Made by a program: the position numbers and the translations under genes. Of a stretch of 40,921 bases of DNA, positions 7,382 to 39,714 are shown in pieces. Every line of letters begins with the position of its first letter. Within the stretch, counting starts at the first letter, position 1. This DNA is from a virus. A model generated the notes under the pieces. That model made no database searches. It saw only the letters and a program-made list of their open reading frames with translations, and was not told the origin of the DNA. The stretch lies in the UHGV virus genome UHGV-0093931. One strand, given 5' to 3'.

Positions 7382-8008
7382 TTAAAGCTCGTACTGAACG
7401 CCTTTGACAACGCCGATGATCAGGCAATTACCGTTAATTGAAATGTTTGGATAGCGTGGATTTAAGGGAACTAAGAACTTTTGAGGCCCATCGATGACAA
7501 GTTTTTTTACAGTAGCCTCGTTTGTCCCATCAAGCCTGGCTACGACTATCTTTCCATGAAGTGGCTCTGCATCTGGATCTACTATGACTGTTGCCCCTTC
7601 AGGGATTGTCGGGAGGCCATTAGGGTTTGTCATCGAATCACCTTTAACCTCCAATGCAAAGGAGCTATCCCCTATGCGGAGTGATGTCTCTATCCACTTA
7701 TCTACTTCGCTGAAAACTTCTGCTGCTTTACATTCTGTAAACTGTCCAGCCTGAACCCAGGATATCACCGGAATCCTTCGCATCTTGGTTATCAGATTGC
7801 CTTCAAATTCAGTGCCATAAAGTATGTAATCAATTGATGTGTTGAAATACTTTGCAAGTTTCGCAAGTGACTCGCCTCCAGGCACATTAACGTCTTTTTC
7901 CCAATACCCAACCGCCACATCACTAACACCGCAGAACTTACCCAGTTCTTTCTGCGAGGTTTTGGTTATGCGCCTGAGAGCTTTGATGCGCTGACCGACA
8001 GTTTCCAT
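7382..8008 (-). CDS. cI: CI-type repressor (XRE-family HTH with LexA-like S24 peptidase domain)
   Basis: 208 aa; N-terminal HTH (...TSQKELGKFCGVSDVAVGYWE...) and C-terminal autocleavage-type domain; divergent from a cro-like gene. Confidence 0.9.
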   Translation of the reverse strand: METVGQRIKALRRITKTSQKELGKFCGVSDVAVGYWEKDVNVPGGESLAKLAKYFNTSIDYILYGTEFEGNLITKMRRIPVISWVQAGQFTECKAAEVFSEVDKWIETSLRIGDSSFALEVKGDSMTNPNGLPTIPEGATVIVDPDAEPLHGKIVVARLDGTNEATVKKLVIDGPQKFLVPLNPRYPNISINGNCLIIGVVKGVQYEL

Positions 8009-14979: not shown

Positions 14980-15000
14980 GTGTATGGAGCGCAAAGAAGC

Positions 15001-15690
15001 ATGAATCAACAAGACCTGAATTTTGTCAGAATAGAATTGCGCCGCGCGCTACCTGACCTCTCTGGGGGAACAAAAGGGCAGCTTGAGGCTTTCAGTGAAC
15101 ACCCACCAGCAGATAAAAATGCCACCCCGCGCCGTGGAATTCATCTCGTCGAACTCGAAGGAGATAAGGGGCCACGCTTTGTTAACTCGCTTTCCGCGCC
15201 ACTGTATGTGCTGGAAACACGCAGCCGCCGTAGGCCAATGCCGCCGATAAAAGATGCGGAATTTGAGTCAGCGCCGTGGCGTAGGGCAGTGTCCGCGCTT
15301 AGTGGATACCAGCAGGCCTGGTTGCGGTACTGTTACGGTTTTGACCTTAGCTATAAGCACCAGGTGATGATGTGTGAATACGTCTGGAAAACTTATCAGA
15401 AATGCCTGGGTGATAATTCCCTTCAGGAGCGCGTAGTAAAGAAACTGATTGGCCTGGTATGGCTGGCAGGGCAGGAAATTGCCGCAACCAGAAATAATGA
15501 AACCTATAAAGACTATGCTGGTGCAGCGTTGGCCCGCATGGTTAGCGTTGACCGTTCGACATGGTTGCGTGTCTATTCAGGGCACTGGGCTGGGTTAAAG
15601 GCCGCTTTTACCCAGCTTGATGAATCTGCGCTGGCCATGGCTCTTGAATACTATGAGGAAGAAGACGCCCTCAAAGTGGCAGAAATGTGA
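15001..15690 (+). CDS. putative late-gene antiterminator (Q-like)
   Basis: Last gene of the early-right operon, directly upstream of a promoter/terminator module and the lysis cassette; family call by position and memory. Confidence 0.5.
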   Translation: MNQQDLNFVRIELRRALPDLSGGTKGQLEAFSEHPPADKNATPRRGIHLVELEGDKGPRFVNSLSAPLYVLETRSRRRPMPPIKDAEFESAPWRRAVSALSGYQQAWLRYCYGFDLSYKHQVMMCEYVWKTYQKCLGDNSLQERVVKKLIGLVWLAGQEIAATRNNETYKDYAGAALARMVSVDRSTWLRVYSGHWAGLKAAFTQLDESALAMALEYYEEEDALKVAEM

Positions 15691-15782: not shown

Positions 15783-15810
15783 AAACCCGCCTGTGAGCGG
15801 GTTTTTCTTT
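15783..15810 (+). terminator. intrinsic terminator (tR'-like)
   Basis: AAACCCGC-ctgtga-GCGGGTTT stem-loop followed by TTTTCTTT. Confidence 0.7.
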
Positions 15811-15891: not shown

Positions 15892-16131
15892 ATGAAAATC
15901 ACATCTGTACATTTCGAAATTCTGCGTCGAGCAGATGCACTTGGTCCACGTGAAACAATTCAATCTTCTGATCTTCCTCACATTCCAGCGAAAACGGTAG
16001 ATTTTGCCATTTCAGATCTTGCTGATTTGGGATTGGTAAATGCTGTTCAAAGTAAGTCTGATGAAGGTGGGTGGATAGCGATTGAAATCACGTCAAAGGG
16101 TGATCGCTATTTAAATGAACTAGAGGCTTAA
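15892..16131 (+). CDS. hypothetical small protein (moron between Q and lysis genes)
   Basis: 79-aa ORF with GGAGG RBS, AT-richer than neighbours, bracketed by its own promoter-like element and terminator. Confidence 0.55.
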   Translation: MKITSVHFEILRRADALGPRETIQSSDLPHIPAKTVDFAISDLADLGLVNAVQSKSDEGGWIAIEITSKGDRYLNELEA

Positions 16132-16166
16132 TTCACTCTCTAGTAAAACGCGGGACATAATCTATA

Positions 16167-16190
16167 GGCTGCCATTTGGCGGCCTTTTCT
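16167..16190 (+). terminator. intrinsic terminator
   Basis: GGCTGCC-attt-GGCGGCC stem (one G-U pair) followed by TTTTCTATTT. Confidence 0.55.
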
Positions 16191-16296
16191 ATTTCAGGCT
16201 CTGGGAATCACCCTTACTTTCACCTTTGCATAAGAGCCCAGAAGCCTGATCCTCCTTTCATCACACAGCGCCATCCGAACTATCGGAGGTGAGGCT

Positions 16297-16575
16297 ATGA
16301 CCAGAATGAGCACCATTTACAGCAGACTTTCATATGGAACAGGAACCACGCTGACCGGCTGCGGTGTATCAGCGAAGGCATACGCCGAAACAGCTAAAAC
16401 AGCAAAAGAGGTGTCCTGGATGTTGGCCGACAGAATTGCAGGGTTAAGCCTGAGCGACTGGGCAATTATTGTCGGTATCGCATGCACCGTTATTACCTGT
16501 GCAGTGAACTGGTATTTCCGCTGGAAAGAACGGGAGGATCGTCGCAATGGCTATGCCACAAAAGCTGAAGAATAA
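16297..16575 (+). CDS. holin, pinholin-like (phage 21 S-like) with dual-start motif
   Basis: 92 aa; begins MTRM (two Met codons separated by a basic residue); weakly hydrophobic first segment, clear TMD (WAIIVGIACTVITCAVNWYF) and charged tail (...REDRR...) resembling the S21 pinholin; sits immediately before a SAR endolysin. Confidence 0.7.
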   Translation: MTRMSTIYSRLSYGTGTTLTGCGVSAKAYAETAKTAKEVSWMLADRIAGLSLSDWAIIVGIACTVITCAVNWYFRWKEREDRRNGYATKAEE

Positions 16576-17095
16576 ACTGAGCGCAGCTGTCGTTGGGTTA
16601 ATTCTTGCCGGGGCTTCCGCACCCGTAATTCTCGATCAGTTTCTGGATGAGAAAGAGGGTAACAGCACAACAGCGTACAAGGACGGCTCTGGTATATGGA
16701 CCATTTGTCGTGGCGCAACGATGGTTGATGGTAAGCCAGTAGTTCAGGGCATGAAGCTGCCTGCTGAGAAATGCGCTCAGGTAAATGCTATTGAACGCGA
16801 TAAAGCGCTGGCGTGGGTTGACCGAAATATCAAAGTACCACTGACGGAACCACAGAAAGCGGGTATCGCTTCTTTCTGCCCATATAACATCGGCCCCGGA
16901 AAATGTTTCCCGTCTACGTTCTATAAGCGAATTAATGCTGGCGACCGTAAAGGAGCCTGTGAAGCGATCCGCTGGTGGATAAAAGACGGTGGCCGCGATT
17001 GTCGCCTGACCAAAGGGCAGAAGAATGGTTGTTATGGGCAGGTAGAAAGGCGAGACCAGGAAAGCGCGCTGGCTTGCTGGGGGATAGACCAGTGA
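16547..17095 (+). CDS. SAR endolysin (lysozyme, T4/P1-lysozyme-like)
   Basis: N-terminal signal-anchor-release-like segment (...LSAAVVGLILAGASAPVIL...) followed by a catalytic E...D...T region (EGNSTTAYKDGSGIWTICRG). Confidence 0.85.
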   Translation: MAMPQKLKNKLSAAVVGLILAGASAPVILDQFLDEKEGNSTTAYKDGSGIWTICRGATMVDGKPVVQGMKLPAEKCAQVNAIERDKALAWVDRNIKVPLTEPQKAGIASFCPYNIGPGKCFPSTFYKRINAGDRKGACEAIRWWIKDGGRDCRLTKGQKNGCYGQVERRDQESALACWGIDQ

Positions 17096-17616
17096 ACAGA
17101 AGCCTCGTTATTGTTGGGATGGCAGCAATCATCTTCATCGCGGTGCTCTGTGTACTACTGGCGCGCAGCAATGCAGCGTTGACCACGTCAGAGAGTGACA
17201 ACCGGATACTGCGCAACGATAACGCACTGCAGGCAACGGTGATAACTACCCAGGCGTTCAACTTCAACCGGTTTAACCAGGTAGCGGAGAACGCCAGTCG
17301 CCTGAACTCGCTGATTGATGCCGGAACCGAAAAGACCGTTATCGAATACCGGGAGATTCTTCGCCGTGAAAAAACCTGTGATCTGCCTGTTCCTGCTAAT
17401 GTCGCTGGTGGGCTGCTCAACTACGCGAACCGTTTACGTGCCAGCGCAATGCACCCCGATACCGGGGACACTGACGCAGCCGATGATAGTACCGCTGCCG
17501 CCAGCTCAATAACCTATTGTCAGGCCGTTCTCTGGATTCAATCATTACTTGCAGAGATAGAGAAGGGTAACAACCAACTGGCAGGGATTAGGGATATTGA
17601 GGAAGGGAGACATTAG
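17092..17616 (+). CDS. Rz-like i-spanin
   Basis: GTG at 17092 overlaps the endolysin stop; N-terminal TMD (SLVIVGMAAIIFIAVLCVLLA) then a long periplasmic region; contains an embedded +1-frame lipoprotein ORF. Confidence 0.7.
   Translation: MNRSLVIVGMAAIIFIAVLCVLLARSNAALTTSESDNRILRNDNALQATVITTQAFNFNRFNQVAENASRLNSLIDAGTEKTVIEYREILRREKTCDLPVPANVAGGLLNYANRLRASAMHPDTGDTDAADDSTAAASSITYCQAVLWIQSLLAEIEKGNNQLAGIRDIEEGRH
17366..17512 (+). CDS. Rz1-like o-spanin (lipoprotein embedded in Rz)
   Basis: GTG at 17366 with GGAG about 10 nt upstream; signal peptide plus lipobox (...LLMSLVGC...) and proline-rich mature part (PIPGTLTQPMIVPLPPAQ), entirely inside Rz in another frame. Confidence 0.6.
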   Translation: MKKPVICLFLLMSLVGCSTTRTVYVPAQCTPIPGTLTQPMIVPLPPAQ

Positions 17617-17652: not shown

Positions 17653-17910
17653 TTAAGATTTAGAAAGTAGGGCTACAACTCTTTTATGTAACTCTTCTGC
17701 ATAACCTTCATTTACTGGGTTTTCAAACTCCACAGGCGGCGCTGATTTAAAAGCTTTATCGTAGCTATCGCCAAGCATACCAGGCTGTTTGGCAAGGGAG
17801 TTCCAAGCTGTGGATATCGTGGTAATAGCAATTCTTGCTGCATGCTGATCTAAAAGTAGCTCTTCAATAGTTTTTTCGAGTTCATCAATGCGTTTCTGCA
17901 GATCTGTCAT
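17653..17910 (-). CDS. hypothetical small protein, divergent from the glycosyltransferase cluster
   Basis: 85-aa ORF on the opposite strand to all flanking late genes, in an AT-rich island (about 17620-18020). Confidence 0.45.
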   Translation of the reverse strand: MTDLQKRIDELEKTIEELLLDQHAARIAITTISTAWNSLAKQPGMLGDSYDKAFKSAPPVEFENPVNEGYAEELHKRVVALLSKS

Positions 17911-18018: not shown

Positions 18019-19476
18019 ATGCAGGTCACTATCGATGGTGTTCCATACGCGCCTGTCTGCAATTCGGTGTCACGCATAGGAATAGCAATCACAACGCATA
18101 ATCGCCCTGACGTATTGAAGCGGACACTGGCGCAGCATCATCAATTTTTACCGTCCGGCGCGCTCGTGGTTGTCATAGATGATGGTTCAAAACCTGCCGC
18201 AGTCGTTCCCGACGGCGTGCAGCTGCTTCGCAATGAAACATCCCTCGGCATTGTGGCCTCGAAAAACCGAAGCCTCGAAGCGCTGGTGGACGCCGGATGT
18301 GAGCATCTCTTCCTGTGGGATGATGACGCATGGCCGGTTGCCGATAACTGGCACCTGCCTTACATCGAATCACCTGAGTCACACCTGGCTTACCAGTTTC
18401 TCGATCTGGCTGGTCCACGAAAGATAAACGATATGACCGTCCTGCACCAGGATGATAAGCATATCGCTTACACCGGGCAGCGCGGTGTGATGCTGTACTA
18501 CCACCGCAGCGCCATTGAGAAGGTTGGCGGATTCGATCCGGTATACGGTCGAGGCATGTATGAGCATCCTGATTTGGCGCTTCGGATTTATAACGCTGGC
18601 TTAACGTCCTGGGCGTTTGCTGATGTGGTTGGCTCTGAAAAGCTGATTCACTCAATGGATGAATACGAAGAGGGCGCGCGCAGCATACCGAGGCCTGAAC
18701 GTGAAGCGCTCTATAAAAAGAACGCTGTAATTTACGGGCAGCGCCGGGATTCAGGATATACAGGCTATGCCGAATATCGATCTCAGCGCGACGTGGTAAT
18801 CACAACGTTGCTTACCAGCCAGCCAGACCCGCAGCGCGGTACGAAAATGGCGGCCGTATCAGACATGCTGACCAGGTGGGCTGCCTCGCTTCGGAATTGT
18901 GGCCGTATTGCGCTGGTGGATGAGCTGCAGACGGCATCGGCAGACGTTGAGTTGTATCGCGTCCCTGACGTGAAGATGAATGTCTACTTCCGGCGCTGGC
19001 TGCATATCTGGCAGCACCTGCGCGATCACCCTGAATACCGGTTCGTCTGGTGTACCGATGGTACCGATGTCGAAATGCTCCGCGCACCGTGGGAAGAAAT
19101 GCAGCCCGGGAATGTTTACGTCGGTTCTGAACCGAAGATCTACGCCGACACCTGGGCGAAACAGAATCATCCTGAGCGTATCTATCAGGAATTCATTGAA
19201 GCGCACCGCGGCGATGTGATGCTTAATGCTGGTCTTCTGGGAGGCACCCGCGCTGATGTGATGGCGTTCGCTCATGGCATCATCCGTCTTTACTACCGGA
19301 TCGAGAGTTATCGTTTCTGGAAGAAAGAACAGGCTGGCGCAGCGGTGGGTGACATGCTGGCGTTCGGTATCGTTGCGCAGTCATTCGCTGACAGGTTGGT
19401 CACCGGCCCTCTGGTACATACCGTTTTCAAAACTGATGGTATCGGTAAGGAGGCAGCATGGTGGAAACACAAGTGA
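18019..19476 (+). CDS. two-domain glycosyltransferase (GT2-like GT-A domain plus a second nucleotide-sugar-transferase-like domain)
   Basis: 485 aa; N-terminus ...IGIAITTHNRPDVLKRTL...VVVIDDGS...LFLWDDDAW... is a GT-A/GT2 signature with DxD; C-terminal half has ...VWCTDGTDVEM...NAGLLGG... resembling another GT-A-type domain; no predicted TM segments. Confidence 0.7.
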   Translation: MQVTIDGVPYAPVCNSVSRIGIAITTHNRPDVLKRTLAQHHQFLPSGALVVVIDDGSKPAAVVPDGVQLLRNETSLGIVASKNRSLEALVDAGCEHLFLWDDDAWPVADNWHLPYIESPESHLAYQFLDLAGPRKINDMTVLHQDDKHIAYTGQRGVMLYYHRSAIEKVGGFDPVYGRGMYEHPDLALRIYNAGLTSWAFADVVGSEKLIHSMDEYEEGARSIPRPEREALYKKNAVIYGQRRDSGYTGYAEYRSQRDVVITTLLTSQPDPQRGTKMAAVSDMLTRWAASLRNCGRIALVDELQTASADVELYRVPDVKMNVYFRRWLHIWQHLRDHPEYRFVWCTDGTDVEMLRAPWEEMQPGNVYVGSEPKIYADTWAKQNHPERIYQEFIEAHRGDVMLNAGLLGGTRADVMAFAHGIIRLYYRIESYRFWKKEQAGAAVGDMLAFGIVAQSFADRLVTGPLVHTVFKTDGIGKEAAWWKHK

Positions 19477-20048
19477 AGTTTGTTGTGGTTGGCCATCATT
19501 CCCGTTACGCCTCAGCTGCATTGCTGGCTGGTGAACTTGGCGCGCACCTTCTTATCGATGAAGGGAATCACGGGGCTAACTGGAATCACCGGCGCGCTAT
19601 CGAATGGGCTGCTGAGCAGCCTTGCCGGGTGGTGGTACTGGAAGACGACGCGCTGCCTGTACGTGGATTCAGAGACAAGCTTACGGGCTGGCTGGCTCGT
19701 TTCCCTGGCGACATGCTTAGTTTTTATCTGGGCACCGGGCGGCCACCGCAATACCAAATGCAGATAGCTGAACGCCTGATTAATGCGGATAAGGTGAGGT
19801 CTGACTTCATTATGCTGCAACGCCTGATACATGGCGTGTGCTACAGCATACCGCCTCAAAGCATCAGCCGTGTGCTGTCTCAATGGGACGGCAGTAAGCC
19901 TGCCGATTATGCCGTGGGCGATGCTTATGGTGGCGTTGTCGTCTATCCCTGTTGGTCGCTGGTGGACCACGCAGACGGCGAACCGGTTGAGCGTCACCCT
20001 GACTCAGCACCACGAACAGAACGCCGCCGGGCGTGGAGGTTAGCCTGA
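19458..20048 (+). CDS. glycosyltransferase family 25-like protein
   Basis: 196 aa; ...FVVVGHHSRYAS...LIDEGNHG...RVVVLEDDALP... matches the GT25 (LPS/LOS glycosyltransferase) motif order as recalled; strong AAGGAGG RBS; start overlaps the upstream gene. Confidence 0.55.
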   Translation: MVETQVKFVVVGHHSRYASAALLAGELGAHLLIDEGNHGANWNHRRAIEWAAEQPCRVVVLEDDALPVRGFRDKLTGWLARFPGDMLSFYLGTGRPPQYQMQIAERLINADKVRSDFIMLQRLIHGVCYSIPPQSISRVLSQWDGSKPADYAVGDAYGGVVVYPCWSLVDHADGEPVERHPDSAPRTERRRAWRLA

Positions 20049-39477: not shown

Positions 39478-39714
39478 ATGAAAAATATAATTATTCCAGT
39501 TATTGCCTGTCTGGTGCTTTCAGCATGTTCAGGACCTGTTCTGGAGAAACAGAAACCTGTTTGTCAGGCTGAGTTAGTGGTTGGTGGGCTGCCCCAGTCA
39601 GTGCAGATTTACGGTGTACGAAAAGTTGCAAATCAGACTGAGTACAGAGCCGGTTATCCATTTAACTGGCGATGGGTGAATAAAAATAACTTCACCCGTT
39701 CGAATTGCTCTTAA
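39478..39714 (+). CDS. small lipoprotein, Cor-like superinfection-exclusion candidate
   Basis: 78 aa; signal peptide with lipobox (...LVLSAC-S); AT-rich upstream region; own intrinsic terminator; located just after J, where cor sits in phi80/N15/HK022-type phages. Confidence 0.5.
   Translation: MKNIIIPVIACLVLSACSGPVLEKQKPVCQAELVVGGLPQSVQIYGVRKVANQTEYRAGYPFNWRWVNKNNFTRSNCS

Follow-up and report, generated by a model that had tools for sequence, protein, structure and literature searches.

The viral genome UHGV-0093931, 40,921 nucleotides long and called the window hereafter, is a complete lambdoid prophage with integrase, CI-like repressor, Q antiterminator, terminase, head and tail genes. 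Its plus strand carries, between positions 16297 and 17616, four tightly packed open reading frames (ORFs): a holin gene, a lysozyme gene, the spanin gene Rz and, nested within the latter, Rz1. An earlier interpretation of this DNA from its letters, termed here the sequence-only reading, had described these as the lysis genes, and our ORF check found all four at the positions it gave. We consider it probable that the segment 16297–17616 serves an intact lambdoid prophage as its host-lysis cassette and follows the pinholin / signal-anchor-release (SAR) endolysin / spanin pathway. The prediction of a pinholin-type holin, a SAR endolysin and an embedded two-component spanin is supported, and the support comes from family searches, from a solved lysozyme structure of the phage 21 type and from a comparison with 77 related loci.

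The holin gene (16297–16575, plus strand) opens with ATG ACC AGA ATG, encoding M-T-R-M, and is preceded by the Shine-Dalgarno sequence GGAGG at 16285–16289, 7 nt before the first ATG. Initiation at Met1 would yield a long product of 92 aa, presumed to be the antiholin, and initiation at Met4 (16306, plus strand) a short product of 89 aa, presumed to be the holin. The MTRM signature of a dual start, pointed out in the sequence-only reading, is well conserved: among 25 family members, M1 and M4 are each kept in at least 90% of the sequences, and position 3 is usually Arg or Lys (MTRM, MTKM, MKRM). EssD, the S21-like holin of prophage DLP12, opens with MKSM. The dual-start motif for holin and antiholin is present at the level of the sequence, and both starts are presumably used. 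A third start, Met42, was considered and set aside, as this residue is replaced by Ile, Leu or Val in many homologues. The stretch 16408–16422 inside the holin gene does carry an SD-like GAGGTG, 6 nt before the Met42 ATG, and the 51-aa product that would begin there, composed of the pore transmembrane domain (TMD) and the tail, is exactly the one called in some public annotations (e.g., P0071).

Over its full length, the holin matches PHROG 20 (holin) with an E value of 3e-21. Two Pfam families are matched above their curated thresholds, PF16080, the HP1 family (E = 1.7e-11, 44.3 bits for a cut-off of 28.8), and PF04971, the phage 21 S family (E = 1.6e-7, 31.6 bits for a cut-off of 26), and the protein is a member of the S21/HP1 class II holin families. 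Both Pfam matches span only residues 38–80, and the PF04971 match bears out the likeness to the phage 21 pinholin that had been noticed in the last TMD and the tail.

The endolysin gene (16547–17095, plus strand) overlaps the holin ORF by 29 nt and encodes a SAR-type GH24 lysozyme of 182 aa that matches PF00959 (E = 5e-23) and PHROG 7 (E = 9e-60). Its N-terminus consists of MAMPQKLKNK followed by the predicted SAR segment, LSAAVVGLILAGASAPVIL (residues 11–29, nt 16577–16633, plus strand), in which Gly, Ala and Ser make up 47% of the residues and the mean Kyte-Doolittle hydropathy is 2.2, as compared with 2.1 for RrrD. From residue 3 onward the endolysin aligns with residue 1 of PDB 3hde, which we take to be the phage 21 R lysozyme, and of RrrD (PDB 4zpu), with E values of about 1e-18. 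Because this alignment starts at residue 3, it includes the N-terminal membrane segment. The SAR-like character ascribed to the endolysin N-terminus is borne out by this Gly/Ala/Ser-rich segment, which aligns with the N-terminal segments of 3hde and 4zpu, and the likeness to R21 extends through the N-terminal hydrophobic domain. The motif E37-x8-D46-x5-T52 is invariant in the alignment with RrrD and its relatives. The additional likeness to P1 Lyz, raised in the sequence-only reading, found no support: a PDB search returned no P1 Lyz entry at E ≤ 1, residues 1–32, and hence the SAR segment, contain no Cys, and the motif residue is Asp46, so that the caging of the P1 Lyz type is not indicated; the suggested alignment to P1 Lyz was set aside as uninformative. 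Since the SAR segment lacks Cys, one would not expect the enzyme to be activated by disulfide isomerisation in the manner of P1 Lyz. In the periplasmic domain there are eight Cys, against four in RrrD, and an insertion of 10 residues relative to RrrD (RLTKGQKNGC region).

The hydrophobic segment of the endolysin ends in A-S-A-P, and A-[ST]-A-P is conserved throughout its lysozyme subtype. The N-terminus could also be an ordinary cleaved signal peptide, given the three Lys of its n-region, its hydrophobic core of 19 residues and the Ala-Ser-Ala motif at residues 22–24, in which case the endolysin would be secreted and would have no SAR domain. We regard this as very unlikely, given that Pro25 directly follows A-S-A, that A-[ST]-A-P is a property of the whole subtype, that the segment aligns with the SAR domain of R21/RrrD and that the catalytic Glu is situated just 8 residues past the segment, a spacing like that of R21. 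A Pro at position +1 blocks cleavage by signal peptidase I. The membrane segment thus looks uncleaved, as a SAR domain would be.

The pairing of the two proteins was examined in 77 genome loci, each with a holin gene of this family, a downstream ORF being counted as full-length from 140 aa upward. All 68 full-length ORFs next to the holin have a SAR-like N-terminus, and no cytoplasmic-type endolysin adjoins the holin in any of the 77 loci; among the long-form holins, 42 of 44 are followed by a SAR-type lysozyme. The downstream lysozymes fall into three subtypes, namely, that of the window, an R21/RrrD-like subtype and a P1-Lyz-like subtype, the last of which (Cys in the SAR segment, E-x8-C-x5-T) follows the holin family in six other loci. 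Such coupling to SAR lysozymes of any subtype is as expected if the holin cannot release a cytoplasmic enzyme. Among the loci listed, those of Symbiopectobacterium (L035–L051) comprise many copies, with eight in S. purcellii MEX and seven in strain RP; such copies, each with a SAR lysozyme after it, point to a heavy prophage load.

The homology of the holin and its exclusive pairing with SAR lysozymes together suggest a small-hole, that is, pinholin, function. SAR endolysins may, on the other hand, pair with large-hole holins too, so that adjacency alone is no proof of small holes, a point that weighs against the pinholin assignment. In the title of a preprint, phage N4 is described as a SAR endolysin–holin system (bioRxiv 10.1101/2025.11.12.688109), and SAR endolysins are not strictly dependent on pinholins. 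The holin could accordingly be a canonical large-hole holin that happens to adjoin a SAR endolysin, a situation reported for some phages. Our literature search, which returned no experimental paper on the holin of mEp237 or HK225, gave no functional data for their subfamily. We nevertheless judge a large-hole holin improbable: the protein is small, with two TMDs at most, it is homologous to the S21/EssD and HP1 holins over the pore-forming TMD and the tail, and only SAR lysozymes stand alongside its family (68/68 loci). For HP1 Hol, pinholin behaviour has been shown experimentally, as it kills cells without release of β-galactosidase and works with a SAR endolysin (PMC7312051).

The membrane topology of the holin is less straightforward. 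Hydropathy of the holin and the endolysin does not reveal a three-TMD holin combined with a cytoplasmic endolysin, the arrangement that would be at odds with a pinholin–SAR system. A two-TMD topology (N-in, C-in) with exit of a weakly hydrophobic TMD1 from the membrane, as in the S21 model, is the arrangement that we treat as likely. Profile-profile comparison relates the holin family, end to end, to a short sister family of 60–67 aa from Xenorhabdus, Photorhabdus and Yersinia with a probability of 99.8%, and hhalign aligns it with EssD, again end to end, with an E value of 3e-6. In the S21 model, the TMD1 of EssD counts as an established membrane domain. Few parts of the family are as well conserved as the N-terminal segment, and the inserted linker is variable, with a 3-residue indel.

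Several observations weigh against this topology. Crude hydropathy detects one clear transmembrane helix, at residues ~47–75, and the candidate for TMD1, LSYGTGTTLTGCGVSAKAYA (residues 11–30), has a mean Kyte-Doolittle value of 0.28 versus 0.68 for EssD TMD1. The region matching TMD1 contains an insertion of ~18 residues relative to EssD and of ~25 residues relative to the short sister family. In addition, the AlphaFold2 model of the holin, built with 25 homologues, has a mean predicted local distance difference test (pLDDT) score of 60.7, with residues 1–31 below 50 and the model unreliable there.

These observations could be accommodated by a cassette that is as described above except for its holin, which would be single-pass (N-out, C-in) and hence a topological variant of the S21 model. 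The conserved N-terminal 50 residues would then constitute a periplasmic or peripheral regulatory domain, with no membrane-exiting TMD1. Such a topology agrees with the presence of just one hydrophobic helix, with the charged insertion (AETAKTAKE) that splits the TMD1-equivalent region and with the lack of a confident AlphaFold2 helix for residues 1–24; the HP1 holin is likewise called single-TMD by several predictors (PMC7312051). It fits less well with the high conservation of the Gly/Thr/Ser/Ala-rich segment, which resembles SAR-type segments, and with the conservation across the holin family of a dual start with an extra positive charge. In the S21 model, a dual start with an added positive charge is meaningful only if the N-terminus has to cross the membrane. 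Furthermore, crude scales rate the TMD1 of EssD as non-inserting as well (+7.2 kcal/mol), although a TMD1 of the S21 type is experimentally established. The single-pass holin is the main rival but appears to us unlikely, if less so than a large-hole holin, and the two-TMD topology remains the one we favour.

The long holin subfamily to which the window protein belongs (84–92 aa) accounts for 44 of the 77 loci examined and includes the holins of phages mEp237, HK225 and Mulock; its hosts are Citrobacter, Klebsiella, Kluyvera, Pectobacterium and Symbiopectobacterium, where it occurs in prophages. We tentatively entertain, as an unlikely possibility, that this subfamily is a topological variant of pinholins in which the ancestral TMD1 has been split by the insertion. 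If this were true, the strongly conserved Gly/Thr-rich N-terminus would have ceased to be a genuine membrane helix and would serve as a regulatory domain, periplasmic or interfacial, joined to one pore-forming helix, and the control of lysis timing would be changed.

The Rz gene (17092–17616, plus strand) encodes the predicted inner-membrane spanin subunit of 174 aa, which matches PHROG 214 (Rz-like spanin) over residues 4–171 (E = 2e-52) and carries an N-terminal TMD, LVIVGMAAIIFIAVLCVLL (residues 5–23), with a mean Kyte-Doolittle value of 3.27. Its frame is open from 16975, but translation most plausibly begins at 17092, where a GTG overlaps the lysozyme stop codon (GTGA). This GTG was preferred to the ATG at 17119, which would give a product of 165 aa, for its coupling to the lysozyme stop and for the N-terminal Arg that it provides; public gene calls give 174 or 165 aa.

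The sequence-only reading had recognised, wholly within Rz and in the +1 frame, a Pro-rich lipoprotein ORF with the lipobox LVGC, and this ORF was confirmed at 17366–17512 (plus strand). It encodes Rz1, the predicted outer-membrane lipoprotein subunit of the spanin, and occupies the 0.52–0.80 portion of the Rz length. The 48-aa precursor consists of MKKPVICLFLLMSLVGC followed by STTRTVYVPAQCTPIPGTLTQPMIVPLPPAQ, and the mature part contains 7 Pro in 32 residues. The start at 17366 was retained because, in mEp237, the GTG is the earliest possible start. The lipobox L-V-G-C is followed by Ser at position +2, with no Asp there; Ser at +2 is not a residue that causes retention in the inner membrane. 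Further Cys residues, which might serve intermolecular disulfides in the periplasm, are found at positions 96 and 143 of Rz and 13 of mature Rz1.

Rz1 matches PHROG 456 (E = 4e-6), and the Pfam search gave no match for either Rz or Rz1; the NCBIfam search yielded nothing useful for any of the four cassette proteins. These blank searches, and the fact that Rz1 is left uncalled by every public gene caller in the loci examined, could be taken to mean that the embedded ORF is a chance frame, with Rz acting alone, or that the cassette is a decayed remnant. We give these explanations almost no credence. In a simple lipoprotein-signal filter applied, on both strands of the window, to the 1442 start codons that open a frame of 35 codons or more, two starts pass: those of Rz1 and of the Cor lipoprotein gene. 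The 48-aa ORF, with its lipobox, second Cys (Cys13) and Pro-rich tail, is kept inside the Rz of both mEp237 and HK225 despite their differing Rz N-termini. The two filter hits and this conservation make the embedded ORF more than a product of chance, as does the PHROG 456 match, and all prophage modules are intact, which is not what a decayed remnant would look like. Moreover, HK225, ZF40 and mEp237 form a catalogued family of embedded two-component spanins in the survey of Kongari et al. (PMC6139136), where the o-spanins of HK225 and mEp237 are listed and the reason is given for which embedded o-spanins escape gene callers. The other protein that passed the filter, the Cor superinfection-exclusion lipoprotein (39478–39714), is 78 aa long, has a signal ending in LSAC and matches PHROG 1119 (E = 1e-25); its gene has the J-region genes on one side and the tail fibre on the other.

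A candidate regulator of the ratio between the two holin starts is an RNA stem-loop at 16269–16291 (plus strand), the 3′ arm of which holds the GGAGG at 16285–16289. It is made up of 9 bp with one bulge and is seen in both the minimum free energy and the centroid folds. When the structure was supplied by hand for a pairing count across 24 distinct upstream sequences, 88.9% of the cells were paired, versus 37–48% with slid partners. The stem-loop is thus conserved in relatives, but the covariation in its favour is thin, there being only four compensatory cells, among them an A-U to U-A exchange in Klebsiella relatives; RNAalifold, run on the 24 upstream sequences, did not find the stem-loop unaided, with the alignment gaps falling in the loop. 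The position of the stem over the Shine-Dalgarno sequence suggests that it may tune the holin:antiholin ratio, and it is a possible analogue of the sdi structure of lambda S.

Taken together, these features suggest the following course of lysis. Late, Q-dependent transcripts would be translated from both holin starts, in a ratio probably fixed by the stem-loop that buries the Shine-Dalgarno sequence, and the 92-aa form, with its extra Arg3, would be the antiholin, the 89-aa form the holin. The lysozyme would be exported via Sec, and its SAR segment would keep it tethered and inactive in the inner membrane. At the set time, small channels formed by the holin would collapse the membrane potential, whereupon the SAR segment would exit the bilayer and the enzyme would refold as phage 21 R does and break down the cell wall. 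The Rz–Rz1 complex, released from the peptidoglycan mesh, would finally disrupt the outer membrane.

The surroundings of the cassette are those of a lambdoid late region. The integrase (50–1363) and the CI-like repressor (7382–8008) are encoded on the minus strand. The cassette lies downstream of the gene for the late antiterminator Q (14980–15690, plus strand; PF06323, E = 2.4e-36; PHROG 304, E = 7e-72), itself preceded by an HNH/DUF968 gene. A consensus scan located two terminator-like hairpins on the plus strand between Q and the holin, one at 15783–15804 (8-bp stem with 5 GC pairs and a T run) and the other, just before the holin gene, at 16166–16185 (8-bp stem with 6 GC pairs). To judge from its position, the first is a candidate tR′. 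A sigma-70 promoter scan detected no convincing pR′ between Q and this first hairpin. A 79-aa ORF (15892–16131; PHROG 32916, E = 1e-26), flanked by the two hairpins, looks like a moron within the late leader. There are no tRNA genes between Q and the holin, which differs from the situation in Mulock.

On the 3′ side, an 85-aa ORF on the minus strand (17653–17910; PHROG 16546) runs towards the end of Rz, with a terminator-like hairpin next to it (17641–17622, minus strand). Farther downstream follow two glycosyltransferase genes, HNH, the small and large terminase subunits, the major head protein, the tape measure, J, Cor and the tail fibre. The glycosyltransferase pair (18019–19476, PHROG 1579, E = 2e-246, and 19458–20048, PHROG 854, E = 9e-72), situated between the cassette and the HNH/terminase genes, is probably a moron that modifies surface polysaccharides; the larger gene seems to be split in the public contig L009. 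The holin is 100% identical to genes of Citrobacter youngae and C. pasteurii, and the host of the prophage is probably a Citrobacter. At least 24 public contigs contain the exact lysozyme, which in one of them follows a Q of a different family. In the assembly L006 (GCA_032438775.2), an identical lysis cassette lies downstream of an antiterminator of another family, PF06530 (510–875) in place of PF06323, which illustrates module exchange at the Q/lysis boundary.

The lysis cassette is of the routine lambdoid type, and every part of it has already been described in near-identical form. We rate it as already known on account of its near-identity to the sequenced phages mEp237 and HK225 and of the cataloguing of its spanin type in the literature, and its importance beyond annotation is small. 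What is gained are the correct coordinates of the four lysis genes, including Rz1, which is missed by automatic callers, and the GTG start of Rz; the cassette also marks the start of the late operon of an intact and probably inducible prophage. The wider interest is limited to the interrupted TMD1 in a widespread enterobacterial holin subfamily that is always paired with SAR lysozymes, a subfamily that could serve as a natural variant to probe the S21 model with respect to TMD1 exit and antiholin control.

The nearest sequenced phages, mEp237 (NC_019704) and HK225 (NC_019717), are about 87–88% identical at the nucleotide level, a divergence of ~12%, and have the same gene order and overlaps, the same Rz family and the same 48-aa type of embedded Rz1. 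For the holin, identity to the window protein is 98% in mEp237 and 95% in HK225. The lysozyme of mEp237 is 95% identical to that of the window, whereas HK225 carries a lysozyme of the R21-like subtype that is only 34% identical. In both phages, Q and the genes that separate it from the holin are unlike those of the window, in keeping with lambdoid mosaicism, and the annotation names the holin, the lysozyme and the Rz-like spanin but leaves Rz1 out. In Klebsiella phage Mulock, a "SAR endolysin" is annotated beside a holin that belongs to the same family and is 78% identical.

The better-known cassettes are more distant. Haemophilus phage HP1 provides, with Hol, the prototype of PF16080, the best Pfam family for the window holin, and its hol and lys genes overlap, with an Rz-like gene after them, as in the window; HP1 Hol itself shows little direct similarity to the window holin (32% over 44 residues, E = 6e-4), its gene has no dual start, and a C-out topology is reported for it. 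P1 Lyz shares the N-terminal SAR segment and the GH24 fold class with the window lysozyme, which differs from it in lacking the Cys of the SAR segment and in having Asp in place of Cys as the motif residue. The S21/R21/Rz/Rz1 genes of phage 21 and EssD/RrrD/RzpD/RzoD of DLP12 share with the window a holin that has the M-x-[KR/S]-M dual start, the Y-G-T motif and, in homologous form, the last TMD and the charged tail, a lysozyme with a SAR segment and E-x8-D-x5-T, and an Rz1 embedded in the +1 frame. When set against them, the window holin is only 23% identical, carries the ~18-residue insertion in the TMD1 region relative to EssD and has a far less hydrophobic N-terminus; the lysozyme is 34% identical to RrrD, with the 10-residue insertion and eight Cys versus four, and Rz and Rz1 belong to a different family.

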